From NCBI GenBank assembly GCA_048938105.1, contig JBHLMN010000025.1, positions 17,723 to 81,722 on the forward strand: a DNA stretch of 64,000 bases, written 5' to 3'. Below the pieces are notes generated by a model that searched no databases, was not told the DNA's origin, and was given only the letters and a program-made list of their open reading frames with translations. The position numbers were made by a program, and so were the translations under genes. The first letter of the stretch is position 1. The number at the start of each line of letters is the position of its first letter. The stretch is from Promethearchaeota archaeon. Its GTDB lineage: Archaea; Asgardarchaeota; Heimdallarchaeia; Hodarchaeales; Hodarchaeaceae. Shown piece after piece: positions 2,672 through 27,803 of the stretch.

Positions 2672-4063
2672 ATGAATGACCAAGAAGAAATACTAATACA
2701 AAAAACTAGATGGAATAGTCGCAGGTTTCTCCTTTTGTATTGGTTCGCTTTCGTTTTCGTAGGAACTGCAGCAGCAGCTGGTTTAGGAACTAGTGTTCTA
2801 AATCCTAAAATAAAGATTAACAAAGTCGATCACAGTTCGCTCAACTTACCAAGTGAATGGGGTCCAGAAGACTGCACAGGTTCCATGTGTCATAATGATA
2901 CAGTCGCTTCCTGGAATGAGACAGGCCATTCAAGAGCTGGGACTCTCTTGCCAAATGGCTCATGGCTTGTAGGAGACGATCATATCTACAACGATTCCTT
3001 TTTCCGCTCCTGTTATGGAGGTGATGAAGCATTAATTCAATGCCATACTACTCGATACAACGAAACAGATGGAACCTACTGGACTGGAACCAACGGTGTT
3101 AGCTGTGCGGCGTGTCATGAAGAACCAGGTATGATAGATTATGCAGCTGACAACTGCCAAATCTGTCACGAGTATTCAAATAATAATATAACTGGAGACT
3201 ATCAGATGAGTGCACATAGTAAATCATATGAAGATTTGTTAGCAGGTGGATATGCACCTAGCAGCTGTTTACACTGTATGACTGGTCAAGGGGTATATAT
3301 GGATGTGACAGGTCAAGAAGACATCTTGACTTCGATAAACTGTGGAACTTGTCATGATCCACATGATGCAACTAATGAAGCCCAACTCAGAGAAACCGAG
3401 GTTAATGAACTTTGTGGCACTTGTCACAGTAGTACAGTAGAAGTATTCGAGGATTCCCGCAATAAACACTTGAACTACGTAGATGAAGCTTGTGCTTCAT
3501 GTCATGGATATCAGCTAGACCCTAAACCCTGGAACCCCAATAATGCGAGGATTAACCATTCATGGACGATTAATTTCGAAGATGCCTGTGGACAATGTCA
3601 CACAGGTCAAGTCGACACACGAAAAGACATGTTAAATTATATCCAGGGGAACTTCGAATCTCTGAATGCCACATACTACACCCAACTCGCTAATGTCACT
3701 GCTAAAGTTGATGAAGCAAATGGGACAGCTGGAGTGGATCTGTGCACAATCGAAGATGCGTATGCTCTGATCGAAGAAGCTGAAGAACTGATTTATCCAG
3801 TTGAACATGATGGAAGTTATGGTTTCCATAATCCCACAATGATGGAAGATAATTTTGCACTGGCCCTAGCCAAACTAGATGAGGCATATGTTAAAGCCGA
3901 GACTGCTATTGGTGGTGAACAAACTAGTTCTACAAGCACTACTGGATCTACTAGTTCAATTACAACTTCAGGTGGTACACCTGGATTCGAGTTGTCCACT
4001 ATCTTGGCAGTAATCAGCCTCGTATCAACAGCAACAATCTTATTACACAGAAAGAGACGCTAA
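2672..4063 (+). CDS. Surface-anchored multiheme cytochrome c 1 (9 heme-type sites, NrfA/c552-like C-terminal core)
   Basis: Sites CX4CH, CX9CH, CAACH, CQICH, CLHCM, CGTCH, CGTCH, CASCH, CGQCH; helical domain with DGSYGFHNP; S/T linker, then PGF+TM+RKRR tail. Start MNDQEE chosen by paralog comparison (ORF track starts at 2642). Confidence 0.92.
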   Translation: MNDQEEILIQKTRWNSRRFLLLYWFAFVFVGTAAAAGLGTSVLNPKIKINKVDHSSLNLPSEWGPEDCTGSMCHNDTVASWNETGHSRAGTLLPNGSWLVGDDHIYNDSFFRSCYGGDEALIQCHTTRYNETDGTYWTGTNGVSCAACHEEPGMIDYAADNCQICHEYSNNNITGDYQMSAHSKSYEDLLAGGYAPSSCLHCMTGQGVYMDVTGQEDILTSINCGTCHDPHDATNEAQLRETEVNELCGTCHSSTVEVFEDSRNKHLNYVDEACASCHGYQLDPKPWNPNNARINHSWTINFEDACGQCHTGQVDTRKDMLNYIQGNFESLNATYYTQLANVTAKVDEANGTAGVDLCTIEDAYALIEEAEELIYPVEHDGSYGFHNPTMMEDNFALALAKLDEAYVKAETAIGGEQTSSTSTTGSTSSITTSGGTPGFELSTILAVISLVSTATILLHRKRR

Positions 4064-4097
4064 ACACTTGGTTGGATCCATCTCTAAAATAAAAAAC

Positions 4098-4157
4098 GAT
4101 AACAGCTCATTCGCTGTTATCTTTACCCTTTTTCCAGAAGTGTGGGGAATGAGGAAG
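4098..4157 (+). terminator. Hairpin plus T-tract after cytochrome 1
   Basis: GATAACAGC-tcattc-GCTGTTATC, then a T-rich run; an equivalent element follows cytochrome 2. Confidence 0.6.
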
Positions 4158-4294
4158 GTTTCGTTGTAAAACATGAGTCTATCGAGCTTGCTTGAAGTGT
4201 TTTCCAAGATTTAATTTTTGCTTTTAAAACTGGTACTTTTTCAATAATCCGCTATAAATTACGATTGTCTTGATACCCCTTCAGAAAAACTGAG

Positions 4295-6469
4295 ATGATT
4301 AAATATATGCAAAATAGTTTATCTACACTACTAAAGTGTAATCAAAGGTATCTTTTCTTGCCTTTACTAGTATTACTTATCATAATCCCTTCGATTATGA
4401 TGTTATCTCCGACTAGTAAAAGGTTGGATTTTGTAGAGTCTCAAAAAAATACTTCTAGTATTTCTCCTAAAGTGAGTAACAACGAACAAGACAACAATCC
4501 TGATGCTTATTTTCCAAATTTTCTTTATTATTCAATTTCAGTGGCAAATGCCCTGATTGATTACTTATACGACAATGATTCTGGTGGATTCTTCCGCTCA
4601 GTTAACCAGTTCTGGTCTAATAATTCCATTAATATGTTGAAATATTCTTATGATCAAGCACAAGCTATTCTTGCATTATTAAAACTTTCTGATGCTGTAA
4701 TTAATGATTCTGAACGTGATTTTGCGATTCATTTTGCTGAATTAATCGGTAATTATATGATAACACGTCTTTATGACAATGAAGTTGGAGGATTCTATAC
4801 ATCCACTAGTAGTTCATATAAAAAGCCAGGAGTGAATGGAAAAGTTATTCAGTCTCTCCTCTCCCTATACAAGACCACTGGCAACATTTCTTATAGAGAT
4901 AAAGCAATTGAAACTTTTGAGTTTATAGACAATTTTGGTTGGGATAGTGAAAGTGGTGGTTATGTTTATCTACTGTCTCATAGTGGTCTCATTGCATCAT
5001 CGAATCCCAGTTCAGCCGATCCTTATGATCCTAACTCAAAAAAAGTAGATCATAATGCTATTATGGGGGAAGCCTTACTTGAACTATATCTTTTAACTTC
5101 TGATCCTTCATACATTTCTAAAGCAACAGAACTTTACCAGTTAATCAACACCTCTTCCAGAGACTATACCACTGAATTGTTCTATATTGGATTTAACAAT
5201 GGTGGAATTGTTGAGCCGGATTATACTGACATTTTTATAAATTCCCTGATGCTAGAGTTTCTATCTCAGCTCTACAACATAACTGGGGATTTGACTTACT
5301 TTTATGATTTTCAATCTTTAATAAATGCTGTTCTTTTAAATTTTTGGGACTCTTCCAATGGAGGATTTTTTGCCACATTCCCCTATAATAGTCAAGTTGA
5401 GAAAGACGAGAAGAAATACACAGAGAGGCAATTTTATGCAATTAGAGCTCTTGATGAGGCCTACAAGTTGACAAACAATAACTTATATTATAATCTCATT
5501 CTGGATGTAATGGAATTTCTAAATAATAATCTCTATGATAATGTTCATGAGGGATACTACCTATTAGCAAACGCTGATGGAACAGAAGGAGAACAAAACT
5601 GGAAAGATAAATATTCTGTTACTCAATCCCTAGCTATCTACGAATTAGCCAATCTCTGGCTTTATAGTAAGCCTAGTGTTCTCAATGCTCTCTGGTCCCC
5701 TTTAAATCCACGACCTTCAGATGCTGTTACGATTAGGATTGCAGCGTTTGATGCGGATGGTCTTTCCACCGTATTGTTGAATTATTCTATGAATAACCAA
5801 CCCTACAAGTTAATAGAAATGACCACCAATGAACTAATAGGGAATATGTATGATTTTACCTTTGATTCTCAACCACATGGCACAACAGTGAATTTTAACA
5901 TCATTGTTAATGATACCTTAGGGAATATCGTTGTTCGAGAGTCATATTTCTTTGTTTGGGAGAATGATATTTTACCTCCTCATATTATGTTATTGGGAAT
6001 AAATCCAAGTAACGAGATTTTTGTCAGTTCTAATTTTAGTATAACTGTGAGTGTACATGATAATCCTCCCCAAGGAGATGTCACGAGTGTTCGTATGTAT
6101 TATAAAGAAACGGGTCAATCAAAGTGGGCATCCAGGGCATTATTTCGGTTAGGTGATTATTTGTGGAGGATAGAATTCCCCGATGGTTTCAAAAAACCTA
6201 ATAGATATGAATACTTCTTTGAAGCAATTGATAATCGAGGAAATTTTGGATTTAGTCCTTATTTTTACTTAGAAGTCTATGGCCATCCAAAAAACTTCCC
6301 ATTAACTGCATTTATTGGTGGCCTTTTTTTCATATTATTTATTGTTCCTGCAGGGATTATTGTTTACAAAGAATACAGTAAAAATAGTGCTCGTACAACC
6401 TTAAGAAACATTAAGAAGACACGCAATGTAAAACGGAGGAAAAAGAGAGGGACAAGACGTATAACGTAG
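4295..6469 (+). CDS. Membrane-anchored YyaL/AGE-like (alpha/alpha)6-barrel protein with Ig-like domains, copy 1
   Basis: Repeated (Y/W)DxxxGG(F/Y) units; KYSYDQAQA resembles YyaL KMLYDxAQ; N-terminal TM, two beta-rich domains, C-terminal TM and basic tail. Confidence 0.75.
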   Translation: MIKYMQNSLSTLLKCNQRYLFLPLLVLLIIIPSIMMLSPTSKRLDFVESQKNTSSISPKVSNNEQDNNPDAYFPNFLYYSISVANALIDYLYDNDSGGFFRSVNQFWSNNSINMLKYSYDQAQAILALLKLSDAVINDSERDFAIHFAELIGNYMITRLYDNEVGGFYTSTSSSYKKPGVNGKVIQSLLSLYKTTGNISYRDKAIETFEFIDNFGWDSESGGYVYLLSHSGLIASSNPSSADPYDPNSKKVDHNAIMGEALLELYLLTSDPSYISKATELYQLINTSSRDYTTELFYIGFNNGGIVEPDYTDIFINSLMLEFLSQLYNITGDLTYFYDFQSLINAVLLNFWDSSNGGFFATFPYNSQVEKDEKKYTERQFYAIRALDEAYKLTNNNLYYNLILDVMEFLNNNLYDNVHEGYYLLANADGTEGEQNWKDKYSVTQSLAIYELANLWLYSKPSVLNALWSPLNPRPSDAVTIRIAAFDADGLSTVLLNYSMNNQPYKLIEMTTNELIGNMYDFTFDSQPHGTTVNFNIIVNDTLGNIVVRESYFFVWENDILPPHIMLLGINPSNEIFVSSNFSITVSVHDNPPQGDVTSVRMYYKETGQSKWASRALFRLGDYLWRIEFPDGFKKPNRYEYFFEAIDNRGNFGFSPYFYLEVYGHPKNFPLTAFIGGLFFILFIVPAGIIVYKEYSKNSARTTLRNIKKTRNVKRRKKRGTRRIT

Positions 6470-8700
6470 TGAATGGAGAAATTACAATGATTTATATTGA
6501 TTTTGGAGCTTTTGGGATGGATTTAGGTATGTTGATATTGCTTTTTAGCCTAGTAGCCCTTTTGATTGATGTCTTTTTAGTGATTTATGGTGGATACATT
6601 GAAAAATGGGAAATTTATTCAGAAATAAGCCTTTCTGCTGGTATTCTGGCTATTATCATCTCTTTCCTATATTTTAGTTATTCAGTTATAACAGCTGATT
6701 ATCACTTCACCTATGTGAGTGATCATATTAACAATGATATGGACTTTTTCTTAAGACTATCAGCCATTTGGTCTGGACAGTCTGGATCTTATTTCTTTTG
6801 GACATTTCTAGTTGTAATGGTTTATTCAATCTTCAGGCTGATGTTCAAAGAGTACGCGCATGAGACAATCTTTTGGCGAGCGTTTGTCTTATCAGCTCTT
6901 CAAACATCTGTTTTGGTGGCCTTAACACTGCTAAGTGATCCGTTTAAAATAAATGATGGTGTTTTTTCCGATGGTATTGGATTAAATCCATTATTAATGA
7001 CGTATTGGAATCTCATACATCCTCCAATTGTTTTCATTGGTTATGCTCTATGTTTAATTCCAATGGTCATTGGAATAACAAGAATCTCTATTCTTAAAAA
7101 TGGTGAGTTGCCAGAATTTGAAGGTAAAGAAAAATTAGATAATTTCTTTGAATTTTTAGTTTCATTTGCATGGCTTATATTAAGCCTTGGAATAATAATT
7201 GGTGCTTATTGGGCTTATATGACTCTCGGTTGGGGTGGTTTCTGGGCATGGGATCCCGTAGAAACAGCTTCGTTGATACCCTGGCTTTTTATAACCCTTT
7301 ATTTCCATGGAAAACCTTTTTTTGGCAAAACTAAATACCTAGAAAATTACATTATTAGCATGAGTTACATTGGTGCTTTGTTTACTACATATTTAACAAG
7401 AAGTAATATAATTTCAAGTGTACACGCATTTCAATCCGAAGCAACTTTAGAAAATATTCTAAAGATTTTTATCCCAGAAAATAGTTTTTTTATGTCCATT
7501 ATATTGCGATTCATTCCTGATGAGAAGATGTTATTACTTTTTATTGTCATAATAAGCACTTTTCTTATCCCACATTATTTTGGAATTAGGAGTAAGGATA
7601 TAACAAGGATTCCAATCTATTTTGAAAGAAAAGATTTTCAAGGATCAAGATCTCATATAACTGCCTTAAAAATCTCCTTTATTTCAGGTCTTATAGGTTC
7701 TTATATTATCATCATAGGTTTGATAACCCCTACTATTTATGATATTGTTGGATATATAATCACTTTCAGTCCAGAGGGAGTTGGTTCAAGCATTGTTGTA
7801 GACCAATTGTATTTTAATACAGTTATAACGATTTTTGGAGGTATAATGTTACTTGCGCAGTTTTTCTGTACTTTTTATCCGAGATTGGATGTTAAGAAGA
7901 AGTTTATGTTAATGATAGGAGGATTAACAGCAGGAATCACATTTTCAATAGGAGGTTTCTTATATCGAAGTGGTTTTCTTAATCAGATTCTTGGAGACAA
8001 AAACCTAATACTTCTCTTATTCAATAACTTCTGGACAACTAGTGACAAAGCAAACTTAGTAATTCCTCTTCTATTTCTGGGAGTGGTTGGATTGCTAGTA
8101 GAGTTTTTAAAAGTGGCTTTTAAAGAAGAAAAGAATGTTATCCGAAAAACATCGCAAATACTGTTACATCTTTCTTTCTTAGTAATTCTCCTTGGTGCAT
8201 TAATGAGTGCAAATATGACTGTTTCTAGTCAAATTTTGGGTCAAGAAGGAGGTGAATATAAAATTCCAGGAACTTCTGTAACAATTATTATTATAGATTT
8301 AGATAGAAGATTTCCTGAATCAGGTTTCAATCGAGTCGAATATGATACACAATTCATGTTGTCATCAGATGCACGAATCATTGCATTTGGAATCAGTAGA
8401 CTCGCTTATGATAAGATAAACCGAATGGATCATGAGGTGACAATAATTAACGATCTCTTTTCTAACATTTACATCGTAACTAGTGGGGTTTTTGAAAACC
8501 CCATTTCTGGAATTTTTGAGGCTGCTTCCCTCCAGATTAAAGTTATACCATATATTAACATTTTGTGGGTAGGATGTCTTCTCCTCCTTTTTGCTATCCT
8601 CCCCTTGACCATAGGGAGATTTATTATCCTGAAAAAGACCTTATCTTTTAGAGAAATAGAACAGAAAGATGTTAAAACGAAAATAGTGCCAATTAAATGA
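6469..8700 (+). CDS. ccmF: Cytochrome c heme lyase CcmF, copy 1
   Basis: WSGQSGS, HPP, WGGFWAWDPVETASL (WWD motif), SVHAF; true start may be ATG 6487 (MIYI, as in the paralog). Confidence 0.93.
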   Translation: MNGEITMIYIDFGAFGMDLGMLILLFSLVALLIDVFLVIYGGYIEKWEIYSEISLSAGILAIIISFLYFSYSVITADYHFTYVSDHINNDMDFFLRLSAIWSGQSGSYFFWTFLVVMVYSIFRLMFKEYAHETIFWRAFVLSALQTSVLVALTLLSDPFKINDGVFSDGIGLNPLLMTYWNLIHPPIVFIGYALCLIPMVIGITRISILKNGELPEFEGKEKLDNFFEFLVSFAWLILSLGIIIGAYWAYMTLGWGGFWAWDPVETASLIPWLFITLYFHGKPFFGKTKYLENYIISMSYIGALFTTYLTRSNIISSVHAFQSEATLENILKIFIPENSFFMSIILRFIPDEKMLLLFIVIISTFLIPHYFGIRSKDITRIPIYFERKDFQGSRSHITALKISFISGLIGSYIIIIGLITPTIYDIVGYIITFSPEGVGSSIVVDQLYFNTVITIFGGIMLLAQFFCTFYPRLDVKKKFMLMIGGLTAGITFSIGGFLYRSGFLNQILGDKNLILLLFNNFWTTSDKANLVIPLLFLGVVGLLVEFLKVAFKEEKNVIRKTSQILLHLSFLVILLGALMSANMTVSSQILGQEGGEYKIPGTSVTIIIIDLDRRFPESGFNRVEYDTQFMLSSDARIIAFGISRLAYDKINRMDHEVTIINDLFSNIYIVTSGVFENPISGIFEAASLQIKVIPYINILWVGCLLLLFAILPLTIGRFIILKKTLSFREIEQKDVKTKIVPIK

Positions 8701-9104
8701 GAGTACATGAAATGATTAGATCTAAAAACCTTATGTTCGCTATAATTATAATGTTTGTAAGTGTAAGTGCATTATTGTTTCTATTAAGTAGTTCCAGTGT
8801 TCCAGTTTTTTCCGTAAAAGAACTTAAAAGCCATTCCCAACCCAGTTCTTTCTTAAATCATAATATTCAAGTGGTAGGTGTCGTTCAGGATATAAATAGT
8901 ACTGGTTTTTTTATAACAGATCCAGAGGATGTAACAAATTCATCCTTGATTATATACATTAATGCGACTAATGTAGAAAAGCCTGTAGGTTTTGAATCTG
9001 GAAAAACTATTCTCGTTGAAGGAAAACTCATTTCAACAACAGGTATGTGGAAGCTAAAAGCGTCAATGATTAGCACTAAGTGTCCATCTAAGTACACAGA
9101 GTGA
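8697..9104 (+). CDS. ccmE: Heme chaperone CcmE, CxxxY (System I*) type, copy 1
   Basis: N-terminal TM, OB-fold-like body, terminal KCPSKY. Confidence 0.92.
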   Translation: MRVHEMIRSKNLMFAIIIMFVSVSALLFLLSSSSVPVFSVKELKSHSQPSSFLNHNIQVVGVVQDINSTGFFITDPEDVTNSSLIIYINATNVEKPVGFESGKTILVEGKLISTTGMWKLKASMISTKCPSKYTE

Positions 9105-12027: not shown

Positions 12028-12059
12028 GCCATTCCATAATTACTCAATTGAATAGGGTA

Positions 12060-13643: not shown

Positions 13644-13827
13644 ATAATAACCTCTTGAGTAATATCTCTTATTATGGTTTTTTGATGGTTTTTTGACATT
13701 TTATCAATTCTTCATAAGAAATATTTATGATTTAATTTCAACTACTTTAGTAAGTTAAGACTGAGATTTCGATATTTTTATTCAATCTTCTGACAATAAG
13801 TAAGTTTTCTATGGTTTTTCTAATTTG

Positions 13828-13851
13828 GTGAGAAAAAAGTAATCTGATAAC
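13828..13851 (-). promoter_or_regulatory. 24-bp shared operator, copy A
   Basis: Minus strand GTTATCAGATTACTTTTTTCTCAC; matches copies at 16455, 16633 and 18408. Confidence 0.7.
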
Positions 13852-13961
13852 TTCCATTCCCAATGATTGGAAAAAAAAAATAAGGTAGAAAAGACATATT
13901 TTCTACTGGATTGTAATTATTTACCTTCAATGTGTTTGAACGTCAATTACTAGGAATTTAT

Positions 13962-14627: not shown

Positions 14628-14733
14628 CTTTAAACCTCAAATAACAATTGTTAAATCTGCAGAATAGTAGTAGGTGGCAAAAATATTAGGATTTGCTAAA
14701 CGAAAGCTCATGGATTAATAGTTCAGATAGTAC

Positions 14734-16454: not shown

Positions 16455-16478
16455 GTGAGAAGAAAGTAACCTGATTAC
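16455..16478 (-). promoter_or_regulatory. 24-bp shared operator, copy B
   Basis: Minus strand GTAATCAGGTTACTTTCTTCTCAC. Confidence 0.7.
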
Positions 16479-16632
16479 TTAGTAAGGGAAAAAACCAGAA
16501 TAAAAATCATCCTAAAAATATACTACAAAAAGCTTTGAAATTAAGATGTTAATTACTTCCCGAGAATTACAGCGCTATCCCACACGATTTATTAAATTCA
16601 CAATTACACTAAGCCTATAAACAACCTTGCAT

Positions 16633-16656
16633 GTTATCGGGTTACTTTCTGTTTAC
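16633..16656 (+). promoter_or_regulatory. 24-bp shared operator, copy C
   Basis: GTTATCGGGTTACTTTCTGTTTAC followed by TTGATTATTGAAAACTTAGAAAA. Confidence 0.7.
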
Positions 16657-16808
16657 TTGATTATTGAAAACTTAGAAAACACTTCTTATTGAAGGAGGGT
16701 GCCTTTTAATAGAGCCCCCTGAAATTTCAATGATCATTCTGATGATTGATTGATATTTCAAAGAGAATTGGGGCTTAATGGCATTAATAAACATGAGGAG
16801 ATAAGGAT

Positions 16809-20178: not shown

Positions 20179-20222
20179 ATCTAGATAACAAATTTCGCAT
20201 CATAGTTCATTTCCAAAGCAAG

Positions 20223-20280
20223 AACAGCAGTTTTCTGCTGTTTCTTTTGCCTTTTTTTTCCAAGTGTTCGGGAGCTGAGG
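20223..20280 (+). terminator. Hairpin plus T-tract after cytochrome 2
   Basis: AACAGCAG-tttt-CTGCTGTT, then T8. Confidence 0.65.
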
Positions 20281-20419: not shown

Positions 20420-22657
20420 ATGATAAATAAAGTAAATATCCAAGTTATTTCTCTAAGAGAATGGTTGTTATATTTCTTCATATCTATATTAATATTAGGT
20501 ACAACTCTACCAAGTATTACGTCTTTTACTCAAATAAATTTCACTTTTATTACTATGGAGAATAATAATCAGAAACTGTCTTGGAATCATGGCATCAAAC
20601 CTGATATAAAGCCTCTTTTCCCTTTTAAATCGGTAAATCTGGTTGAAGACAACCCAGAAGCATATTTTCCAAACTTTCTTTATTATTCTGTTGAAATTGC
20701 GAATACTCTTATTGATCATTTATACGACAATAAATCTGGTGGATTCTATCGTTCCGCTGATCAGGAATGGTCTAATAATAGTATAAATAGACTGAAATAT
20801 TCTTATGATCAAGCTCAAGCGATTATTGCACTACTAAAACTATCAAATGCCGTAATTAATCAAACAGAAAGGGAATATGCTATTAAAATTGCAAAGAGAA
20901 CAGGAAAATGCTTAATCACTGATTTACTTGACGTTCAATTTGACGGATTCTTTATTAGTGAGTCAAACAGACTTAAAAAACCTGGAGTTCAAGCAAAAGT
21001 AATTCAGGCACTTCTTTCTCTTTACAAATTAACAGAAAATCTTACCTATCGAGACATGGCTATTAATACTTTTAACTTCCTAGAAGTCGACGCATGGGAA
21101 AATATCGACGAGAATAAAGGATATTACAATTATCTATTGTCTCACACAGGTTTGATCGCTACGTCAAATCCAGAGACAGAGGATCTATATGAACCCAAGG
21201 CAAAGCGAGTAGATCATAATATATTAATGGGTGAAGCATTACTAGATCTTTACCATATAGAATCAGATGAGATATACTTAAGATATGCTAGGCGAATTTA
21301 TAATTTCTTTAATACCACATGTAGGAATAGTACTACTGGGCTATTTTATACTGGATTAAATGACAATAATGAAATTGTAGAAAATAGGTCAGCTGATTTA
21401 TTCATTAATTCCCTTGTGCTTGAATTTTTAGCTCATTTATATACTGCCACTGAGGAGCAGAAATATTATGATGATTTCTTTACCTTATTATATAGCGTAT
21501 TAGGTAATTTTTGGGACGATTTATATGGGGGTTTTTATAAAACTTATTCTTATGTAGGGCCTGAAGCAAGAGACAAAAAGAAACACACAGAAAGACAATT
21601 TTACGCTATTAGAGCTCTTGATGAAGCGTACAAACTTACCAACAATAGTCTATACTATAACCTTATTTATGACATGATGGAATTTTTAACTAATAAACTC
21701 TATGACAATGAGAACTTCGGATATTTTCAAGAGGTTAATCAGGATGGAACAGAAGGACAACCATACTGGAAAGACAAATATGCTGTAACTCAATCCTTGG
21801 CTATCTATTCATTCGCAAATCTCTGGTTGTATAGTAAACCAGGTGTTCTTAATGGAGTTTGGTCACCCTCAACACCCCTAGCTGATCAAGATTCAGTGAC
21901 CATTTCAGTTGCTGCTTTTGATTCTGATGGGCTATCAAATGTTCTTTTCAATTATTCAATAAATAATGATCCATACAAACTTGTAGAAATGGTTCCACAT
22001 AAGCTTATTGGGAATATGTTTGAAACCATGATGGAAGCCCATCCTGATGGTACAACAGTCAATTTTAATATCATTGTCAATGATACTTTTGGTAACAAAA
22101 TTGTTCGTGGTTCCTATTTTTTCCTTTGGCAGATTGATGTTTGGGCTCCTCAAATCTTCGTAATTAGTATTGATCCTGGAATTGAAATCCCAGTCCACAA
22201 AAACTTTTCGATTATTGTAACTGCACAAGATGTGCCTTCGCAAGGTAGTGTTGAATATGTGCGCATGTATTATCACCTTGCAAATAAGCCTGAAGAAACA
22301 ATTTCTTTAAAACAAATGAGTATCGGATCATATTATTGGAAAGCATCTTTTTCTGAAGGAATCCCAACACCTGGCACATATTTATATTATTTTGAAGCAA
22401 TAGATAATAGGGGGAACCCTGGATTTAGCTATACTAGCTCTTTTTCCATTCTAGGCTACCTAGAAACGCTACCTGCATCACTTGTATTTGGTGTACTACT
22501 TCTAATACTTGTTTTCATTCCTGCGGGGCTCTATACATATGTGGAATTTAAGAAAAAGAGTGCAAGAAAAACATTAAAGAATATAAAGAGGGCACGAAAC
22601 CGGAAAGGGAGAGGAAAGAGAGGAGCAAAAAGAATTAGAAGCACAAAGGAGAAATAA
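20420..22657 (+). CDS. Membrane-anchored YyaL/AGE-like (alpha/alpha)6-barrel protein, copy 2
   Basis: Shares AYFPNFLYYS, KYSYDQAQA, TERQFYAIRALDEAYKLTNN and ANLWLYSKP with copy 1. Confidence 0.75.
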   Translation: MINKVNIQVISLREWLLYFFISILILGTTLPSITSFTQINFTFITMENNNQKLSWNHGIKPDIKPLFPFKSVNLVEDNPEAYFPNFLYYSVEIANTLIDHLYDNKSGGFYRSADQEWSNNSINRLKYSYDQAQAIIALLKLSNAVINQTEREYAIKIAKRTGKCLITDLLDVQFDGFFISESNRLKKPGVQAKVIQALLSLYKLTENLTYRDMAINTFNFLEVDAWENIDENKGYYNYLLSHTGLIATSNPETEDLYEPKAKRVDHNILMGEALLDLYHIESDEIYLRYARRIYNFFNTTCRNSTTGLFYTGLNDNNEIVENRSADLFINSLVLEFLAHLYTATEEQKYYDDFFTLLYSVLGNFWDDLYGGFYKTYSYVGPEARDKKKHTERQFYAIRALDEAYKLTNNSLYYNLIYDMMEFLTNKLYDNENFGYFQEVNQDGTEGQPYWKDKYAVTQSLAIYSFANLWLYSKPGVLNGVWSPSTPLADQDSVTISVAAFDSDGLSNVLFNYSINNDPYKLVEMVPHKLIGNMFETMMEAHPDGTTVNFNIIVNDTFGNKIVRGSYFFLWQIDVWAPQIFVISIDPGIEIPVHKNFSIIVTAQDVPSQGSVEYVRMYYHLANKPEETISLKQMSIGSYYWKASFSEGIPTPGTYLYYFEAIDNRGNPGFSYTSSFSILGYLETLPASLVFGVLLLILVFIPAGLYTYVEFKKKSARKTLKNIKRARNRKGRGKRGAKRIRSTKEK

Positions 22658-22659: not shown

Positions 22660-24921
22660 ATGATTTACATTGGATTTGGAATGGATTTAGGCATGATTGT
22701 GTTGATTGTAGCTCTAATAGCACTTTTACTCGACGCTATCATTGTTCTTTCTGGAGAACATATAGAAAAGTGGGAATCTCTTTCAGAGCTCTGTCTTACT
22801 GTTGGTATCACAGCTATTATCATCTCTTTTGGCTATTTCAGTTATTCAGTCATTTCTGTTGATTATAGCTTTTCTTATATAAGTGGGTATGTTAATAATG
22901 ACATGGATCTTTTCTTGAGGCTATCAGCTATTTGGTCTGGACAGGTTGGATCATATTTCTTCTGGTTATTTTTGGTTGCTCTTCTTTATGTGATCTTTAG
23001 GTCAATGTTCCGAAAATATGCACATGAATCTGTCATTTGGAAATCATTTGTAATGACGAATGTCCAAGTTATTGTGTTAACAGCATTAACCCTTTTTAAT
23101 GATCCCTTCAAACTCAATATAAAGACTGTCACTGATGGTGTTGGACTTAATCCTATACTTTTGACTGAGTGGAATCTTATTCATCCACCAATTATTTTTA
23201 TTGGTTATGCCCTTTGCTTGGTTCCTATGGCCATTGGAATGGCTAGAATTTCTTCTCTTGAAGATGGGAAGGTACCAGACTTTGAAGGTAAGGAAAAACT
23301 GGATAATTTCTTTGAATTTATGGTTTCACTTTCTTGGCTTGTTTTAAGCTCAGGAATAATAATTGGGGGATATTGGGCTTATGTAACTCTCGGATGGGGG
23401 GGTTTTTGGGCATGGGATCCTGTTGAGACGGCCTCCCTAGTGCCATGGTTTTTTATTACCCTTTATTATCATGGAAAACCTATTCTTGGTAAACGGGAAT
23501 ACCTTGGCAATTACCTTGTAAGTATGAGCTACTTAGGTACCTTATTTGCCACATATTTAACTAGGAGTAATATTATATCAAGTGTACACACATTTCAACC
23601 TGAAGCAACCTTAGAAAATATTCTAAAATTCTTCATTCCTACGAATAGCTTTATGATGAAGATTATCTTACGATTCATACCTGATGAATGGTTATTATTT
23701 TTATTCATTGTTCTAATTGTGACTTTTTTAATTCCCCACTATTACGGAATTAAGAGTAGGGAAATATTTCATATTCCTATCTCACTTAATAAGAAAGATT
23801 TTCAGACTTCAAGATCCCGTATAACCGCATTGAAGATATCCTTCATTTCTGGTCTTTTTTGTTCTTATATCATCATCATAGGCTTGTTAACACCTGTTGT
23901 TTTTGACATTATTGGTTATTTTATTACTTTTAGTCCGAAAGGATTTGGATCAAGTATTATTATCGATATGGTGTTCTTTAATACAGTTATAACTATTTTT
24001 GGAGGACTAATGCTGCTTGCACAGTTTTTCTGTACTTTTTATCCTAGATTAAGCCTTAAGAAGAAGTATAGTCTCTTGATAGGTGGGGTAATAGCTGGAC
24101 TCACATTTTCAATATCTGGTTTTTTTTATCGGAATGGTTCTCTTAATCTGATTCTAGGTGAAAACAACCCTATCCTTGTTTTTTTAAGTAATTTCTGGAC
24201 TACTAGTGATAAAGCAAACTTGGTTATTCCTCTTTTATTTCTGGGAATTATAGGATTGATTATCGAATTTATTAGAGTAGCATTGAAGGAAGAGAAAAAT
24301 CTCATCCGTAAAACATCTCAAATAATGTTACATTTCTCTTTTTTAGTAATTCTTCTTGGTGCCTTACTGAGTGCAAATATGACATTTTCAACTGAGATAC
24401 TTGTTCAAGATGGTGGTGAATATCCAATTGAAGGCACTTCAATTAAGATTACTATCCTTGAGCTAGTTAGAGAATATCCTACTTCAGGCCCACTTGATGT
24501 TGAGTATATTACTAAATTCATGCTATCCTCTGACACACGGGTCATAGGATTTGGAATCAGCAAATTAGTCCGTCATAAGCGGTGGATTAACCCTTCAGAT
24601 GAATTATCAGGTTACAATGCCAAAGTGACAATTATAAGTGATCTTTTTTATGATATTTACATTATTACTGCTGGTTTTAATCAAAATCCATTAATTGGTT
24701 TTACAAATTCTCTTCTTCGAATAAAAATTGTACCGTATATTAACATTCTATGGTTGGGATGTCTTTTCCTTCATTTTGCTATGATTCCTTTAACTATAGG
24801 GAGATTTATCCTCTTAAAAAGGGCTTTTTCACCAGTTGGAAAGGAATCAGATAAATTTAATTCTAAAAGTGGCACCTCAGAGAACGAAAACGTTGTTAAT
24901 GGTGGTAATGAAAATGGTTAA
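22660..24921 (+). CDS. ccmF: Cytochrome c heme lyase CcmF, copy 2
   Basis: HPP, WGGFWAWDPVETASL, SVHTF. Confidence 0.93.
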   Translation: MIYIGFGMDLGMIVLIVALIALLLDAIIVLSGEHIEKWESLSELCLTVGITAIIISFGYFSYSVISVDYSFSYISGYVNNDMDLFLRLSAIWSGQVGSYFFWLFLVALLYVIFRSMFRKYAHESVIWKSFVMTNVQVIVLTALTLFNDPFKLNIKTVTDGVGLNPILLTEWNLIHPPIIFIGYALCLVPMAIGMARISSLEDGKVPDFEGKEKLDNFFEFMVSLSWLVLSSGIIIGGYWAYVTLGWGGFWAWDPVETASLVPWFFITLYYHGKPILGKREYLGNYLVSMSYLGTLFATYLTRSNIISSVHTFQPEATLENILKFFIPTNSFMMKIILRFIPDEWLLFLFIVLIVTFLIPHYYGIKSREIFHIPISLNKKDFQTSRSRITALKISFISGLFCSYIIIIGLLTPVVFDIIGYFITFSPKGFGSSIIIDMVFFNTVITIFGGLMLLAQFFCTFYPRLSLKKKYSLLIGGVIAGLTFSISGFFYRNGSLNLILGENNPILVFLSNFWTTSDKANLVIPLLFLGIIGLIIEFIRVALKEEKNLIRKTSQIMLHFSFLVILLGALLSANMTFSTEILVQDGGEYPIEGTSIKITILELVREYPTSGPLDVEYITKFMLSSDTRVIGFGISKLVRHKRWINPSDELSGYNAKVTIISDLFYDIYIITAGFNQNPLIGFTNSLLRIKIVPYINILWLGCLFLHFAMIPLTIGRFILLKRAFSPVGKESDKFNSKSGTSENENVVNGGNENG

Positions 24922-25312
24922 ATCCAAAAACGTCATAACTTCTGCAATTATCATCATAATATGTATAGGCGCATTTTTATATCTATTAGCCAGCTCTTCT
25001 ACTCCAATCTTCACTGTGAAAGAATTTATGGATCAACAGCAACTTGATTCCTATAAAAATCGTAAAATCCAACTAATAGGTGTTGTTCAACAAGTTAACA
25101 AAACAGGTTTCTTTATAACTGATCCTGATGATATAAATAACGCATCTTTGATTATTTATATTAATTCAACCAATGTAGAAAAACCTGTAGGATTTGAAAC
25201 TGGGAAAACTGTCCTTGTTGAAGGAAAACTTATCTCAACAACTAGTATATGGAAGTTCAAAGCTACAATGATTAGCACTAAATGTCCATCTAAGTATCAA
25301 GATGAAACATAA
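24914..25312 (+). CDS. ccmE: Heme chaperone CcmE, CxxxY type, copy 2
   Basis: KCPSKY; likely start MVKSKN overlapping the ccmF stop (ORF track starts at 24836). Confidence 0.92.
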   Translation: MVKSKNVITSAIIIIICIGAFLYLLASSSTPIFTVKEFMDQQQLDSYKNRKIQLIGVVQQVNKTGFFITDPDDINNASLIIYINSTNVEKPVGFETGKTVLVEGKLISTTSIWKFKATMISTKCPSKYQDET

Positions 25313-25444: not shown

Positions 25445-26125
25445 ATGCTTGAGAAAATACAGGAAAATCAGAACTGGATTATTCTGGCTTTGATGAGTAT
25501 CTTTGCCGTTATTAACTATTTTCTCGTGTTTATAGTTGTCAAACCGTTTCAAGGTTTTAATGTGAGTGGGCATCCAATTTTTTACATGGTTCCATTTGCA
25601 TTTTCAACATACCTGTGTTTTGCTGTTGTTCTTCTAAGTGCTATTCTTTACTTATGGAGAAAAGACACGCGATTCGATCTTCTTCTAGTTTCTGGGGCTC
25701 AGACTGGAGTCGTTGTTGGAGTAATAACAATTATAGTTGGAATAATCTGGTCTAAACCAGAATGGGGCTATTGGTGGCAATGGGAGCCCAGACAAACTGT
25801 AACATTGATCATGTGGTTGGCTTATGTTGGATTACTAGTTTTTAGAGAGATGATGGATGAGAAAAACTATGAGAAGAAAGCTACACTTTCCGCGATATTT
25901 GGAATTATAACTTCCCCCTCTGTTCCTTTATCCAACTTCGTCGTTGGTGCATTGCATCCACCCCCTCAACAAACAACACTTGGACCAGGGGTAGGTCTTT
26001 ATTTAATGTTAAATTTCTTATTCATTGGTTTTTTAACCTTATTACTTATTTATATGTCTTATAGGGTCAATAAGATTGATGTGAAGTTGAAAAAAATTAG
26101 AAGAATTAAAATGGACCAAATTTGA
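25445..26125 (+). CDS. ccmC: Heme exporter CcmC
   Basis: WSKPEWGYWWQWEPRQT tryptophan-rich motif, LHP, 6 TM. Confidence 0.9.
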   Translation: MLEKIQENQNWIILALMSIFAVINYFLVFIVVKPFQGFNVSGHPIFYMVPFAFSTYLCFAVVLLSAILYLWRKDTRFDLLLVSGAQTGVVVGVITIIVGIIWSKPEWGYWWQWEPRQTVTLIMWLAYVGLLVFREMMDEKNYEKKATLSAIFGIITSPSVPLSNFVVGALHPPPQQTTLGPGVGLYLMLNFLFIGFLTLLLIYMSYRVNKIDVKLKKIRRIKMDQI

Positions 26126-26157
26126 AGCTGGCTGGAAATTAAGAGGTGATGATTATC

Positions 26158-26313
26158 ATGACAGATATTTTTGATGAGCTATTAGGATCTGATTTGAGTT
26201 TAATGTTTTTCATTTCGATTGCAGTTTGGATTTTTATCTTTATATATCTGTATTTTACAAATATTAGGTTGAAAAAACTTGAAAAAGAATTGAATAGCTT
26301 GAAAGATGAATGA
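26158..26313 (+). CDS. ccmD: CcmD-like small membrane protein (51 aa), missed by the ORF track
   Basis: MTDIFDELLGSDLSLMFFISIAVWIFIFIYLYFTNIRLKKLEKELNSLKDE: single TM plus charged coiled tail; lies between ccmC and ccmA; GAGGTG upstream. Confidence 0.8.
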   Translation: MTDIFDELLGSDLSLMFFISIAVWIFIFIYLYFTNIRLKKLEKELNSLKDE

Positions 26314-26389
26314 AACACCATAATAAGCAGAATAACAAAGATCTTCGCTGATTGTATGGAAATGGATAAATTAAACAGAGTGTGCTAAG

Positions 26390-27100
26390 ATGTCAGTCTT
26401 AAACCACAATAATCCTCCCGTCGTGAAACTAACAAACGTATCCAAGGTTTACGGTTTCATTAATGCCGTGAAAGACATCGACTTGACAATTAAAGAAGGT
26501 GAAATCGTCGGACTATTAGGGAACAACGGTGCTGGAAAAAGTACACTATTAAAGATCATTTCTCTCTTAATTATACCTACAACTGGTAAGATTGAAATGT
26601 TTGGGAAAGAAGTGAAAGGAGACCAATTTCTCCTCAAAAGAGAGATTGGTACTCTATTAAGCCATTCTTTTTTTTATGAAGACTTAACTGGCCGTGAAAA
26701 TCTTGAATTTTATCTTAAGATGAATAGAAGAACAGATGACCATGTTAACGTTATTAACAAGGTAGTTAAAGAATATGGATTAAAGTTTTTTATTGATAGA
26801 CCTACCCATGAACTCTCAACTGGTATGGCAAAGAAACTTGAACTCTTAAGAGTCACTTTACCCAAGTTACCTAAGTTAATGTTACTTGATGAACCTTTTA
26901 GTGGTTTGGATATTGAAAACAAACAATTTATAAAAAATATTATAACAGAACGTAAATCTAATACTACTATTATTATCTGTTCGCATGATTTTAACTCAAT
27001 TTCTCACATATGTACCAAAGTGTATTATCTTGAAAAAGGGAGGATAAATAAAATTCTGGAACCTTCAGAATTCGATTACTTCCTCAATAAGCAAAATTAA
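26390..27100 (+). CDS. ccmA: ABC ATPase CcmA
   Basis: GNNGAGKS Walker A, LSTGM signature, LLDEP; ccm context. Confidence 0.88.
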   Translation: MSVLNHNNPPVVKLTNVSKVYGFINAVKDIDLTIKEGEIVGLLGNNGAGKSTLLKIISLLIIPTTGKIEMFGKEVKGDQFLLKREIGTLLSHSFFYEDLTGRENLEFYLKMNRRTDDHVNVINKVVKEYGLKFFIDRPTHELSTGMAKKLELLRVTLPKLPKLMLLDEPFSGLDIENKQFIKNIITERKSNTTIIICSHDFNSISHICTKVYYLEKGRINKILEPSEFDYFLNKQN

Positions 27101-27113
27101 ACCTTGGGGATGA

Positions 27114-27803
27114 ATGTTGTCAATAATTACTGATATTTATTTTCTAGCAAAAAAAGATATTCTGCTAGAATTTAGGAAAAGAGAAACACTCTTCTCCATG
27201 GGCCTCTTCTCCTTTGCTTCTGTCCTCATCTTTTCCACACTCTTTAATCTCATAGATATATCAGTAGAGGGAAAACAAGCTATTTCTGCTGCTTGTTTAT
27301 GGTTTATCATCACATTTATGGTGATGTTAGGCTTAACTTCTGTTTTTTCTCGTGAATTGAAAAAAAATTCGATTTATTCACTATTATCTCTTCCAATAAA
27401 ACCACAAGCGATCTTTCTAGCAAAACTTTTCTATTTAGTCGCTATTTTAACATTTATTGAAATTATTACACTAATTCTTGCGGTTATCTTTTTGAGGATA
27501 ACTTTACAAGTAAATTTTCTTCTTTTATGTGTAGTTTTAACAATTGGAACTCTCGATCTATGTGTTGCAGGCTGTATTGTCTCCTTTCTAACTATTTATG
27601 CAAAGTCAAAAACATTGGCGATTCCAATCCTGTTTTTTCCCCTGATTCTTCCTTCTGTCTTAATAGCCACACAAACAACAACTAATCTCTTCCTTTTCGA
27701 CGATACAATGACAGTAATCAACAATACCTTACTTCTCATCTTTCATGCTGTAATTATCCTTACTTTCATTTTACTTGTGACAGATGAACTCATTAGAGAA
27801 TAG
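27114..27803 (+). CDS. ccmB: Heme exporter permease CcmB
   Basis: KKDILLEFRKRE, IFLAK, LAIPILFFPLILP; 6 TM. Confidence 0.9.
   Translation: MLSIITDIYFLAKKDILLEFRKRETLFSMGLFSFASVLIFSTLFNLIDISVEGKQAISAACLWFIITFMVMLGLTSVFSRELKKNSIYSLLSLPIKPQAIFLAKLFYLVAILTFIEIITLILAVIFLRITLQVNFLLLCVVLTIGTLDLCVAGCIVSFLTIYAKSKTLAIPILFFPLILPSVLIATQTTTNLFLFDDTMTVINNTLLLIFHAVIILTFILLVTDELIRE

Follow-up and report, generated by a model that had tools for sequence, protein, structure and literature searches.

In the window, the whole 64,000-nucleotide stretch of DNA that was analysed, the genes for a multiheme cytochrome, a membrane-anchored (alpha/alpha)6 protein (here called the barrel), CcmF and CcmE occur in the same order twice, and ccmC, ccmD, ccmA and ccmB occur once, downstream of the second cassette. 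This arrangement had been pointed out in a preliminary description of the sequence and was confirmed by the open reading frames and their Pfam matches. The features are as follows.

2672..4063, + strand: cyt1, gene of an OcwA-like nonaheme c-type cytochrome (Pfam, motifs, family profile)
4098..4133, + strand: hairpin GATAACAGC/GCTGTTATC followed by a T-run, directly 3' of the cyt1 stop, terminator- or attenuator-like (sequence)
4295..6469, + strand: barrel1, (alpha/alpha)6 AGE-fold membrane-anchored protein (Pfam GlcNAc_2-epim, AF2, Foldseek)
6469..8700, + strand: ccmF1, heme lyase (Pfam Cytochrom_C_asm, 86 bits, and CcmF_C; WGGFWAWD motif); the start is GTG 6469, which overlaps the barrel1 stop, or ATG 6487
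8697..9104, + strand: ccmE1, heme chaperone with C-terminal CPSKY, overlapping the end of ccmF1 (Pfam CcmE, sequence, family comparison)
18616..20178, + strand: cyt2, nonaheme cytochrome, paralog of cyt1 (Pfam, motifs, BLAST)
20218..20259, + strand: hairpin AACAGCAG/CTGCTGTT with a T8 run after the cyt2 stop (sequence)
20420..22657, + strand: barrel2, paralog of barrel1 with the same architecture (Pfam, pairwise comparison)
22660..24921, + strand: ccmF2, starting 3 nt past the barrel2 stop (ORF list, Pfam, conserved His)
24914..25312, + strand: ccmE2 (CPSKY), overlapping the end of ccmF2, with an uncertain start between 24836 and 24914 (ORF list, Pfam)
25445..26125, + strand: ccmC, single copy (Pfam Cytochrom_C_asm, 72 bits; NCBIfam ccmC)
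26146..26313, + strand: ccmD candidate, 55 aa with one TM helix (NCBIfam CcmD_alt_fam, 31.8 bits, cut-off 24)
26390..27100, + strand: ccmA, ABC ATPase (Pfam ABC_tran)
27114..27803, + strand: ccmB (Pfam CcmB, 45 bits)

Between the two cassettes, amino acid identity is 34% (BLAST) to 43% (global) for the cytochromes, 55% for the barrels, 67% for CcmF and 63% for CcmE. Judged from sequence, these identities (34 to 67%) mark the two cassettes as an old duplication, with both chance and an assembly artefact excluded. The whole unit was duplicated in an ancestor common to related species.

The Ccm system of the genome and its clients

The genome (5.85 Mb) is 99% complete, and a genome-wide search with PF01578 matched ccmF1, ccmF2 and ccmC only. 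CcmH (PF03918) gave no match across this genome even at E ≤ 1, a search that does find it in control genomes, and there was no thioredoxin-type ccmG among the window ORFs scanned, in agreement with the absence of both genes from the window that was reported earlier. Beyond cyt1 and cyt2, no other c-type cytochrome was detectable in the 99%-complete genome. Since there is neither a general Ccm system nor any other detectable c-type cytochrome, the window genes make up the entire cytochrome c biogenesis system of the organism, a System I variant with a CxxxY CcmE and without CcmH. Its detectable clients are only cyt1 and cyt2, two paralogous OcwA-like nonaheme surface cytochromes. A CcdA/DsbD-like gene was observed on another contig of the same genome.

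Both CcmE1 and CcmE2 end in TKCPSKY, a CxxxY motif, and the CPSKY ending was also found in the CcmE homologs of g1, f31 and f32. CcmF carries the WGGFWAWD motif together with the invariant histidines H178, H274, H313 and H561, which are kept in at least 95% of the sequences in every CcmF group compared. The best NCBIfam match of ccmF1 was the NrfE subfamily, with a score below its cut-off. The assignment to a System I variant in the preliminary description therefore holds, given the CxxxY CcmE and the lack of CcmH. As summarised in PMC4429474 and PMC9012536, the variant System I of archaea and some bacteria ("System I*"; Allen et al. 2006) likewise has CcmA, B, C, D, E and F, a C-x3-Y motif instead of the His motif in CcmE, and no CcmH. 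In contrast with that system, ccmF and ccmE are duplicated here, and a conserved six-hairpin ectoprotein, found in no described Ccm system, is encoded just before each ccmF.

The heme sites of cyt1 are, in order, CX4CH, CX9CH, two CXXCH, CLHCM and four CXXCH, and those of cyt2 are CXXCH, CCH, CXXCH, CX10CH, CLHCM and four CXXCH. Each protein thus has six CXXCH sites, and the remaining ones bear out the non-canonical heme motifs that had been proposed. Moreover, cyt1 has a conserved N-terminal TM segment, a Ser/Thr-rich stalk and a PGF-type C-terminal anchor, and matches the Pfam families Cytochrome_C7, C554, C552 and Paired_CXXCH. The cytochrome family profile aligned with PDB 6I5B (OcwA) over the whole length, motif by motif (E 1e-35), and a motif scan found nine heme sites in 31 of 34 family sequences.

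The best solved relative of these cytochromes is OcwA, a nonaheme terminal reductase on the cell surface of Thermincola potens (PMC6703420). The Asgard proteins are accordingly predicted to be OcwA-like nonahemes of the NrfA/c554/MccA superfamily at the cell surface, with a c554-like tetraheme part preceding an NrfA-like pentaheme part and a C-terminal helix bundle; confident AF2 helices span residues 314-414. The OcwA hemes with open coordination, 2 and 5, have CXXCH sites with a proximal His, whereas the motifs read from sequence in the Asgard family are CXXCM at site 5 in 31 of 34 members (CLHCM aligning with OcwA CLKCH) and often CX0-2CM or CXnCH at site 2 (CX9CH, CCH, CX0CM or CX2CM in g1). 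The odd motifs (CXXCM, CXnCH) map to the two active-site hemes of OcwA and to other sites. Also unlike OcwA, the Asgard proteins have TM or PGF-type anchors.

Architecture of the barrel protein

The N terminus of barrel1 is a signal peptide or TM segment, followed by an (alpha/alpha)6 AGE-fold ectodomain (about residues 76-457), two Ig-like beta-sandwich domains (466-560 and 563-662), and a C-terminal TM helix with a basic tail. The AF2 model has a pLDDT of 83. Foldseek matched the barrel to AGE-superfamily structures with E values of 1e-22 to 1e-14, and to cellobiose/glucose 2-epimerases with TM-scores of 0.75-0.83 (target-length normalised), and Pfam GlcNAc_2-epim (PF07221) scored 33-34 bits against a cut-off of 23.4. 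The fold and the WD/YDxxxGGF loop repeats are shared with the AGE superfamily (N-acylglucosamine, cellobiose and glucose 2-epimerases, YihS) and with YyaL/SSP411 (DUF255). The barrel differs from all of these in being extracytoplasmic and membrane-anchored and in having two Ig-like domains.

The catalytic positions of RmCE were mapped onto the barrels by way of the bona fide cellobiose epimerase P0086. His200, which we take to be a catalytic residue of RmCE, is replaced by L or I in the barrels; the equivalent of H259 is a gap, and that of H390 is T, S or A, in 36 of 36 sequences. His259 and His390 are catalytic in RmCE (PMC5726027). A sugar epimerase was ruled out by the absence of all three catalytic His of cellobiose 2-epimerase from every one of these barrels. 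YyaL was ruled out as well, given that neither barrel1 nor barrel2 matches the thioredoxin-like domain PF03190, which is N-terminal in YyaL/SSP411, and YyaL-type proteins match the barrel only at E ~4e-4. A thiol-disulfide oxidoreductase of the CcmG/CcmH type was discarded for lack of a conserved Cys and of a thioredoxin domain; the barrel1 ectodomain has no Cys, and no column of the barrel alignment exceeds 44% Cys. Taken together, the missing catalytic His, conserved Cys and thioredoxin domain indicate that the barrel is not an epimerase, a YyaL protein or an analogue of CcmG/H. Of the YyaL/AGE label given earlier, AGE therefore applies to the fold only, and YyaL does not apply.

The invariant polar residues of the barrel are D252, K374, E377, D404, W436 and Q444, with H253 near-invariant, and most of this set lies at or just before the N termini of alternate barrel helices in the AF2 model. 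The Ig domains are also strongly conserved. In a set of 1.84 billion proteins, only ~4 clusters (50% identity) show the full architecture; long multi-domain proteins that match the barrel profile often carry six-hairpin and Ig architectures.

Linkage, spacing and phylogeny of the cassettes

The order cytochrome-barrel-ccmF was found in 38 of 38 loci wherever contigs allow, in two Asgard families. In a third Asgard lineage (f32, L083) all three genes are adjacent, the barrel following the cytochrome and ccmF being convergent. Barrel identity is 48-87% within the genus and 24-28% against the family of a different class. The gap between barrel and ccmF has a median of 17 nt and a range of 0-39 nt (34/34 loci), and the gap between cytochrome and barrel has a median of 177 nt, with spacers of 80-490 nt. 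A hairpin with a T5+ run lies 55-87 nt past the cytochrome stop at 31 of 34 loci in two families. The conserved unit thus has two parts, the cytochrome with its hairpin and T-run and then, after a spacer, a tightly coupled barrel-ccmF(-ccmE). This spacing suggests that expression of the barrel is tied to that of ccmF, and not to that of the cytochrome.

The barrel, the cytochrome family and the long ccmF are distributed alike (~15-16 of 20 in the genus, ~35-46 of 89 in other families), and Asgard families with ccm genes but without this cytochrome family also lack the barrel. No full-length barrel homolog away from cytochrome and ccmF was found in the three Asgard lineages or in the search of 1.84 billion proteins. 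Far from being mostly unlinked, every full-length homolog adjoins the cytochrome family and ccmF, and with 34 of 34 loci coupled and adjacency in three lineages the linkage of the barrel to the cassette is not due to chance.

The gene island is all-or-none within the genus, which would fit a mobile island carrying an envelope protein that acts on or binds glycans and does nothing specific for the biogenesis or function of the cytochrome. Pfam, Foldseek and Atlas indeed place the barrel among six-hairpin glycoside hydrolase/epimerase folds, and similar domains occur in many large surface proteins. We nevertheless regard this explanation as very unlikely, because position and coupling are kept down to 24-28% identity, adjacency survives the rearrangement in the third lineage, full-length members were found only beside cytochrome and ccmF, and the barrel has lost the residues known to be catalytic in its nearest enzyme family.

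G347 keeps a cassette-type ccmF, nested in the cassette clade, and has neither barrel nor cytochrome, which indicates that CcmF does not generally have the barrel as a subunit. The cassette is single in most relatives. In some of them extra cytochrome paralogs, CXXCM ones included, occur without a barrel or ccmF of their own (L085, L086), and among the relatives only G070 has, besides the cassette ccmF, a second and divergent one next to ccmCAB and ccmE. Another, sister family has a triad of an EB_dh-type monoheme c protein, a LanC-like toroid and ccmF that is conserved in two genera; the toroid is Cys-free and has a signal peptide and a C-terminal anchor. What the two triads have in common is ccmF together with covalent heme, rather than any single cytochrome.

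Comparison of the trees showed that barrel and cytochrome agree with each other and that both conflict with ccmF. The two window copies of ccmF group together (SH-aLRT 96), a grouping that is rejected by the barrel and cytochrome data (AU p 0.0026 and 4e-9, respectively). This suggests replacement or homogenisation of ccmF, and therefore interchangeability of the two copies. Each component of cassette 1 is closest to the G072 cassette on contig C54, and the barrel and ccm genes of cassette 2 are closest to the G068 locus, where the cytochrome gene is missing at a contig edge.

NrfEFG of Escherichia coli, SirEFG of Shewanella and CcsA1 of Wolinella are dedicated heme lyases for CXXCK or CX15CH sites. 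The preliminary description proposed that each cassette is likewise self-contained, its barrel, CcmF and CcmE forming a dedicated lyase suited to the unusual motifs of the cytochrome encoded with it, in the way that NrfEFG serves NrfA. Two complete cassettes with the affinities described above, the different heme-site spacing at equivalent sites of cyt1 and cyt2, and the second ccmF of G070 would be in line with this proposal. It appears quite improbable, however, given that the genome has no general CcmF to be "dedicated" from, that the four His and the WWD motif are common to all CcmFs, and that most relatives have one cassette. The conflicting ccmF phylogeny and the stand-alone cytochrome paralogs further weaken the idea of one lyase per cytochrome. 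The observations of the preliminary description were therefore upheld and its interpretation in part, the linkage and the System I variant being retained and the dedicated, own-lyase and YyaL elements not being borne out in the form in which they were put.

Proposed role of the barrel in heme attachment

Because it lies beside the cytochrome and ccmF in every relative examined, the barrel makes a good candidate for a so far undescribed helper in cytochrome assembly. From the genomic context we infer a role in heme attachment, and we put at about even the chance that the barrel works with CcmF as an assembly adaptor or chaperone specific to this client, the cytochrome. Its site of action would be the outer side of the membrane, next to CcmF and CcmE. 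There the exported apocytochrome, still tethered to the membrane, or an intermediate with part of its hemes would be held or presented by the barrel. CcmF would then attach heme at the nine sites, several of which are non-CXXCH (CXXCM, CCH, CX3-11CH). Such a role would resemble that of CcmI/NrfG, missing from this CcmH-less system, and not that of the thiol-redox proteins CcmG/CcmH. Like CcmI/NrfG, the barrel is a membrane-anchored, all-helical, Cys-free module on the periplasmic side that is encoded with the lyase; it has no sequence or fold kinship with them (six-hairpin barrel versus TPR), and its binding of the apocytochrome is putative.

In support of the adaptor reading, the barrel ectodomain, the CcmF WWD domain and CcmE all lie on one side of the membrane. 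The narrow family, the matching phyletic pattern, the conserved synteny, the barrel-ccmF coupling, the lost epimerase His and the parallel toroid triad argue in the same direction, and NrfEFG for CXXCK and the ANME CcmF2 beside MHC-B may serve as precedents. As with NrfEFG, SirEFG and CcsA1, a CcmF-type lyase gene adjoins an NrfA-superfamily cytochrome with non-CXXCH sites, and as with NrfEFG a non-catalytic helical accessory (NrfG there) is encoded with the lyase. In contrast with NrfEFG, there is no general lyase alongside in this genome, a genome search gave no NrfF/CcmH homolog, no TPR family is among the Pfam matches of the cassette genes, the accessory is an (alpha/alpha)6 barrel, and the odd motifs are CXXCM, CCH and CX3-11CH.

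In ANME, a CcmF2 gene lies beside MHC-B, with extra unannotated maturation candidates (PMC9012536). In both cases the surface multiheme cytochrome of an archaeon, its heme motifs widened, goes together with its own ccmF and with lineage-specific unannotated genes; they differ in phylum, cytochrome family and accessory genes, and no six-hairpin protein is reported for ANME. The signal peptidase and the 8-TM tryptophan-rich gene by ccmF in the ANME cluster were not noticed among the Pfam-annotated window neighbours.

Several observations count against the adaptor. The barrel tree tracks the cytochrome, which would fit a stoichiometric partner of the mature cytochrome equally well. One lineage has barrel and ccmF in opposite orientations, G347 kept ccmF without barrel and cytochrome, and six-hairpin plus Ig architectures are common among the long multi-domain matches of the barrel profile. 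The conserved polar pocket, as modelled, looks like a small-ligand or carbohydrate site and not like a peptide groove. In addition, no barrel-like protein is known to accompany OcwA of Thermincola.

The same evidence bears on a rather unlikely alternative, in which the barrel would not be a maturation factor and would associate with the cytochrome once that is mature, either as an envelope docking or positioning subunit or as a binder of a ligand (glycan, flavin or humic-type acceptor) for the terminal reductase. Agreement of the barrel and cytochrome trees against ccmF, the joint loss suggested by G347, the barrel following the cytochrome in the f32 and L083 lineage while ccmF is convergent, and the conservation of the pocket and Ig domains are all consistent with it, and OcwA-type proteins are FMN-binding surface terminal reductases (PMC6703420). 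However, a stoichiometric partner is expected to be co-expressed with the cytochrome, and the barrel is set apart from it by the hairpin, T-run and long spacer, yet kept within 0-39 nt of ccmF. The parallel toroid-ccmF linkage with an unrelated monoheme protein also speaks against such a partner.

A bolder form of the adaptor reading, possible but on balance doubtful, is that the six-hairpin ectoprotein is a previously unrecognised essential part of a CcmH-less archaeal heme lyase. Its binding partner would be the apocytochrome, or else heme carried by CcmE/CcmF, and covalent heme attachment at non-CXXCH sites would depend on it, among them CXXCM with Met as a new proximal c-heme ligand. Degenerate alpha/alpha-toroid ectoproteins, AGE-like here and LanC-like in the sister family, would then be the Heimdallarchaeial substitute for CcmH/CcmI.

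Archaeal cytochrome c maturation runs without CcmH, and lyases that handle non-CXXCH sites are known from few bacterial cases (Nrf, Sir, Mcc). The barrel family is narrow, always stands between an OcwA-like surface cytochrome and ccmF, and has lost the enzyme chemistry while keeping a conserved pocket. The module is thus a concrete, genetically testable candidate for an archaeal CcmH/CcmI stand-in and for non-CXXCH heme attachment. It belongs to Hodarchaeales-type Asgard archaea, which are the lineage discussed as closest to eukaryotes, and some published accounts of their respiration report no cytochrome c or leave multiheme cytochromes unmentioned. With an extracellular nonaheme reductase and the machinery to mature it, these archaea would gain a means of electron transfer that has not so far been taken into account for them.

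Gene content of the two cassettes and the Ccm system

ORF listing combined with Pfam and NCBIfam scans revealed two co-directional cassettes in the window, each containing a cytochrome gene (cyt), a gene for a membrane-anchored (alpha/alpha)6 AGE-fold ectoprotein (the barrel), ccmF and ccmE. A single set of the remaining ccm genes lies 3' of cassette 2.

2672-4063, + strand, cyt1 (cassette 1)
4295-6469, + strand, barrel1 (cassette 1)
6469/6487-8700, + strand, ccmF1 (cassette 1)
8697-9104, + strand, ccmE1 (cassette 1)
18616-20178, + strand, cyt2 (cassette 2)
20420-22657, + strand, barrel2 (cassette 2)
22660-24921, + strand, ccmF2 (cassette 2)
about 24914-25312, + strand, ccmE2 (cassette 2)
3' of cassette 2, ending at 27803, + strand, ccmC, ccmD, ccmA and ccmB (single set)

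The 55-residue CcmD matches the NCBIfam CcmD_alt_fam model above its cut-off, and both CcmE proteins end in CPSKY. Identity between the two cassettes is 34-43% for the cytochromes, 55% for the barrels, 67% for CcmF and 63% for CcmE; the copies are old paralogs.

The genome (5.85 Mb, 99% complete) contains no PF01578 genes beyond those of the window and no detectable CcmH, and searches with PF00034 and PF13442 revealed class I cytochrome c neither in it nor in five relatives. Among the ORFs of the whole genome, only cyt1 and cyt2 carry at least three CXXCH motifs, and the two ORFs with two such motifs are, judged by sequence, a DnaJ-like protein and the small subunit of a hydrogenase. This indicates that the Ccm genes of the window are the whole system of this organism. 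The duplicated module sits within a variant of System I, and cyt1 and cyt2 are the only visible clients of the Ccm system in this genome.

Barrel and ccmF are separated by a median of 17 nt (range 0-39; n=34), with the same median in the genus of the window's organism (g1) and in family f31, and ccmF overlaps ccmE in g1. The gap between cytochrome and barrel has a median of 177 nt (81-491), and in 31 of 34 loci it holds a stable hairpin right behind the stop codon of the cytochrome gene, followed at +55 to +87 nt by a run of at least five T. The stem sequences are unlike in the two families, which shows that the structure of the hairpin is conserved and not its sequence. From this layout, the cytochrome mRNA would be terminated or stabilised at the hairpin, and the barrel would be expressed together with ccmF and ccmE.

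The region between the cassettes (11074-18185) encodes a UbiA/heme O synthase-like protein (11074-12027), a 527-residue protein without a Pfam family (12060-13643), an HxlR regulator (14904-15374), an Ig-domain surface protein (16809-18185) and two ORFs of 221 and 244 residues without a Pfam or NCBIfam match. The palindrome AAGTAA-N5-TTACTT occurs at 13837, 16464 and 18406 (three matches against 0.63 expected); the copy at 18406 precedes cyt2 by about 200 nt, and cyt1 has no copy upstream. On the other side of the ccm genes (27832-30909), a gene for an FTR1-family iron permease is convergent to ccmB, a GNAT acetyltransferase gene is next, and a third gene encodes a protein in which DUF1858, DUF438, hemerythrin and PAS domains are combined; adjoining the heme-handling genes, it may act as a sensor of O2, NO or iron.

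Non-canonical nonaheme cytochromes

The AF2 model of cyt1 has a pLDDT of 60 and is confident for the C-terminal helices only, and for this reason its relatives were identified by comparing the sequence profile of the family with the PDB. The best match was OcwA (PDB 6I5B; E 1e-35, full-length alignment), followed by NrfA, octaheme nitrite reductases and MccA. OcwA is a nonaheme terminal reductase of the cell surface, in which a c554-like tetraheme part is fused to an NrfA-like pentaheme part, and its hemes 2 and 5 are five-coordinate "active-site" hemes (PMC6703420).

Nine heme sites are found across 34 members of the cytochrome family. Site 5 is CXXCM in 31 of the 34 sequences, its counterpart in the OcwA alignment being CLKCH. 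Site 2 varies among CX9CH, CCH, CX0CM, CX2CM and CXXCH, and sites 1, 4 and 9 range from CX3CH to CX11CH. At the level of motifs, the preliminary description of these proteins as non-canonical multiheme cytochromes is therefore correct. In the literature searched, we found no mention of CXXCM as a heme motif, no paper linking Heimdallarchaeia or Hodarchaeales with multiheme cytochromes and nothing on a six-hairpin/cytochrome/ccmF module.

The cytochromes keep an N-terminal TM segment and a C-terminal anchor, which is PGF-like in many g1 members. Their cytoplasmic N-terminus and TM segment are unusually conserved (MNDQEEIL...; window 2672-2800 and 18616-18750), with R18, Y23, G31 and G37 invariant across families. 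This conservation suggests that the segment is kept as a signal anchor and has a specific partner in the membrane, and that it is not cleaved off as a signal peptide.

A membrane protein of the cytochrome b561 type (Ni_hydr_CYTB) recurs near cytochrome/ccm loci in g1 and in family f6. It is a candidate electron-input partner in the membrane for the surface cytochromes, for which no quinol dehydrogenase is otherwise visible.

G000:C50:14800-15585, Ni_hydr_CYTB gene of the window's genome, some 2.1-2.9 kb ahead of the first base of the window
L036:4928-5653, Ni_hydr_CYTB gene of locus L036
L075:737-1711, Ni_hydr_CYTB gene of locus L075 (G046, f6)

The barrel is an AGE-fold protein without AGE chemistry

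The AF2 model of the barrel (pLDDT 83) comprises a 12-helix (alpha/alpha)6 barrel at residues 76-457, two beta-sandwich domains and, at the C-terminus, a TM helix and a basic tail; the N-terminal hydrophobic segment is poorly conserved and signal-peptide-like. Foldseek places the protein in the AGE superfamily, with 14-19% identity and TM-scores of 0.75-0.83 normalised to target length. Direct profile alignment with epimerases of the PDB was discarded, its register being off by one repeat, and catalytic residues were instead mapped through the cellobiose epimerase P0086, which can be aligned to both the barrel and the reference cellobiose 2-epimerase RmCE. In all 36 barrel sequences, RmCE His390 is replaced by T, S or A, His259 falls in a gap, and His200, which we take to be a catalytic residue of RmCE, is replaced by L or I. 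His259 and His390 are catalytic in RmCE (PMC5726027).

The AGE-like label proposed for the barrel thus stands for the fold and fails for the catalytic histidines, whose absence rules out an epimerase of known type. The YyaL label was mistaken, given that a Pfam scan of the barrel proteins found no thioredoxin-like domain. The family also has no conserved Cys (the barrel1 ectodomain has none at all), and thiol chemistry of the CcmG/CcmH type is likewise ruled out. What is invariant is another polar set, D252, K176, K374, E377, D404, W436 and Q444, with R250 and H253 near-invariant; in the AF2 model most of this set is located at the N-termini of alternate barrel helices or immediately ahead of them. 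The Ig-like domains are conserved to the same degree as the barrel domain.

In word-based and profile searches, the full architecture was found solely in Asgard archaea. About 85 clusters lie at 50% or higher identity to the barrel query, and among 1.84 billion representatives the full architecture occurs in only about four 50%-identity clusters. The remaining profile matches fall either within Ig regions of giant surface proteins or in other six-hairpin surface proteins. The long proteins matched carry six-hairpin, Ig, FG-GAP or subtilase domains, and none is a Rosetta-stone fusion with a cytochrome or Ccm domain. An Atlas feature search returned generic six-hairpin clusters only, with scores under 0.9. 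A single barrel sequence searched against genome contigs gave no related loci; a separate genome search did recover homologs.

Across 399 genomes of the phylum, the barrel is present in 16 of 20 g1 genomes. About 35 genomes of f31 and f32, families of another class, also have it, with 24-30% identity. The cytochrome family has the same distribution (15/20 in g1, 38/89 in f31-f32), and every barrel-positive genome has Ccm genes. Genomes with ccm genes and neither the barrel nor a cytochrome of this type occur in families f20 (31/135), f6 (5/12) and f19 (3/14). In 38 fetched loci, the order cytochrome, barrel, ccmF is held wherever the contig allows; in f32 and one metagenome contig the three genes are still adjacent, with ccmF convergent. 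The proposed linkage of the barrel gene to cytochrome and ccmF is borne out by these loci.

The barrel gene of G396 (f32) is divided between two ORFs of 189-231 and 465-510 residues that overlap (L076:9350-11402 = L084:7469-9398). The split reflects a frameshift or pseudogene, or else an error of assembly, and the same contig bears two additional cytochrome paralogs. In G318 (L089, L090; single 3.16 Mb contig), site 5 of a cytochrome paralog is canonical CXXCH, and ccmA, ccmB and ccmC are present. Neither ccmF nor barrel was detected in this genome (86% complete), which may reflect incompleteness or a decaying system.

History of ccmF and the role of the barrel

Shallow cassette pairs are congruent among the cytochrome, barrel and ccmF trees. 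One conflict is prominent: ccmF1 and its G072 ortholog are sister to ccmF2 (SH-aLRT 96), and in the barrel and cytochrome trees (support 100 and 95) cassette 2 falls in a clade without cassette 1. The ccmF1/ccmF2 grouping is rejected by the barrel and cytochrome data (AU p 0.0026 and 4e-9) and the ccmF data resist the barrel/cytochrome topology only marginally (p 0.057), these p-values being indicative only because the groups were named after the trees had been seen. The reading is that barrel and cytochrome have a common history and that ccmF was replaced or homogenised between cassettes, which argues against a strictly co-specialised lyase for each cytochrome. Some cytochrome paralogs, including several with CXXCM, stand alone without their own barrel or ccmF; G065 has a cassette-type ccmF without adjacent barrel or cytochrome, and G347 has one with no barrel or cytochrome match anywhere in the genome. 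The earlier proposal that each cytochrome carries its own dedicated lyase is not upheld in this strict form. The main rival to a role in assembly, which we regard as rather unlikely, is that the barrel would be a partner of the surface cytochrome in its mature form, or a factor that positions it.

The cassette ccmFs do not form a supported cross-taxon clade; they group by taxon (a g1 clade and an f31 clade) with weak deep nodes. A docking domain on CcmF was also discarded, the approximately 110 residues beyond the f20 proteins being the ordinary periplasmic CcmF_C part, with no cassette-specific insert. In barrel-less f20 (L071, L072, L077-L080), CcmF is short (563-594 residues) and lacks this C-terminal part, and the C-terminus of CcmE reads QCS, in which the Cys is not followed by Tyr. 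The f20 Ccm may represent yet another System I variant.

A parallel arrangement occurs in f6, a family that shares its class with the window's organism. The ccmF gene of two f6 genera adjoins genes for a LanC-like toroid and for monoheme c proteins of the EB_dh type, of which there are one or two. The EB_dh-type proteins have a single CXXCH and are anchored C-terminally; the toroid starts with a signal peptide and ends in a TM helix and a basic tail.

L075:2278-8518, f6 triad of G046
L074:3305-10596, f6 triad of G051

The two loci are 33-36% identical to each other. In G046 the gap from ccmF to the first toroid gene is 11 nt, and the toroid has no Cys, so that the LanC zinc ligands are absent. 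A similar LanC-like protein is encoded 2 kb from a divergent second ccmF of G070 (L070:12517-14316). LanC-like genes are not general neighbours of ccmF, the f6 triads and this G070 locus being the only linked cases. Most copies in these genomes lie elsewhere, which makes the f6 evidence suggestive and not decisive. This second triad combines ccmF with a degenerate alpha/alpha toroid ectoprotein and with a c-type cytochrome unlike that of the cassettes, and it suggests ccmF-dependent heme attachment as the common denominator.

The module is conserved and duplicated; gene position ties its barrel to ccmF, and shared history ties it to the cytochrome. Lyases linked to particular cytochromes have precedents in NrfEFG and in ANME CcmF2 with MHC-B (PMC9012536); neither includes a six-hairpin protein, in contrast with the Asgard module. 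With confidence that is about evenly balanced, we propose that the barrel would act at the CcmF/CcmE site as an assembly adaptor specific to its client, in a role analogous to that of CcmI/NrfG.
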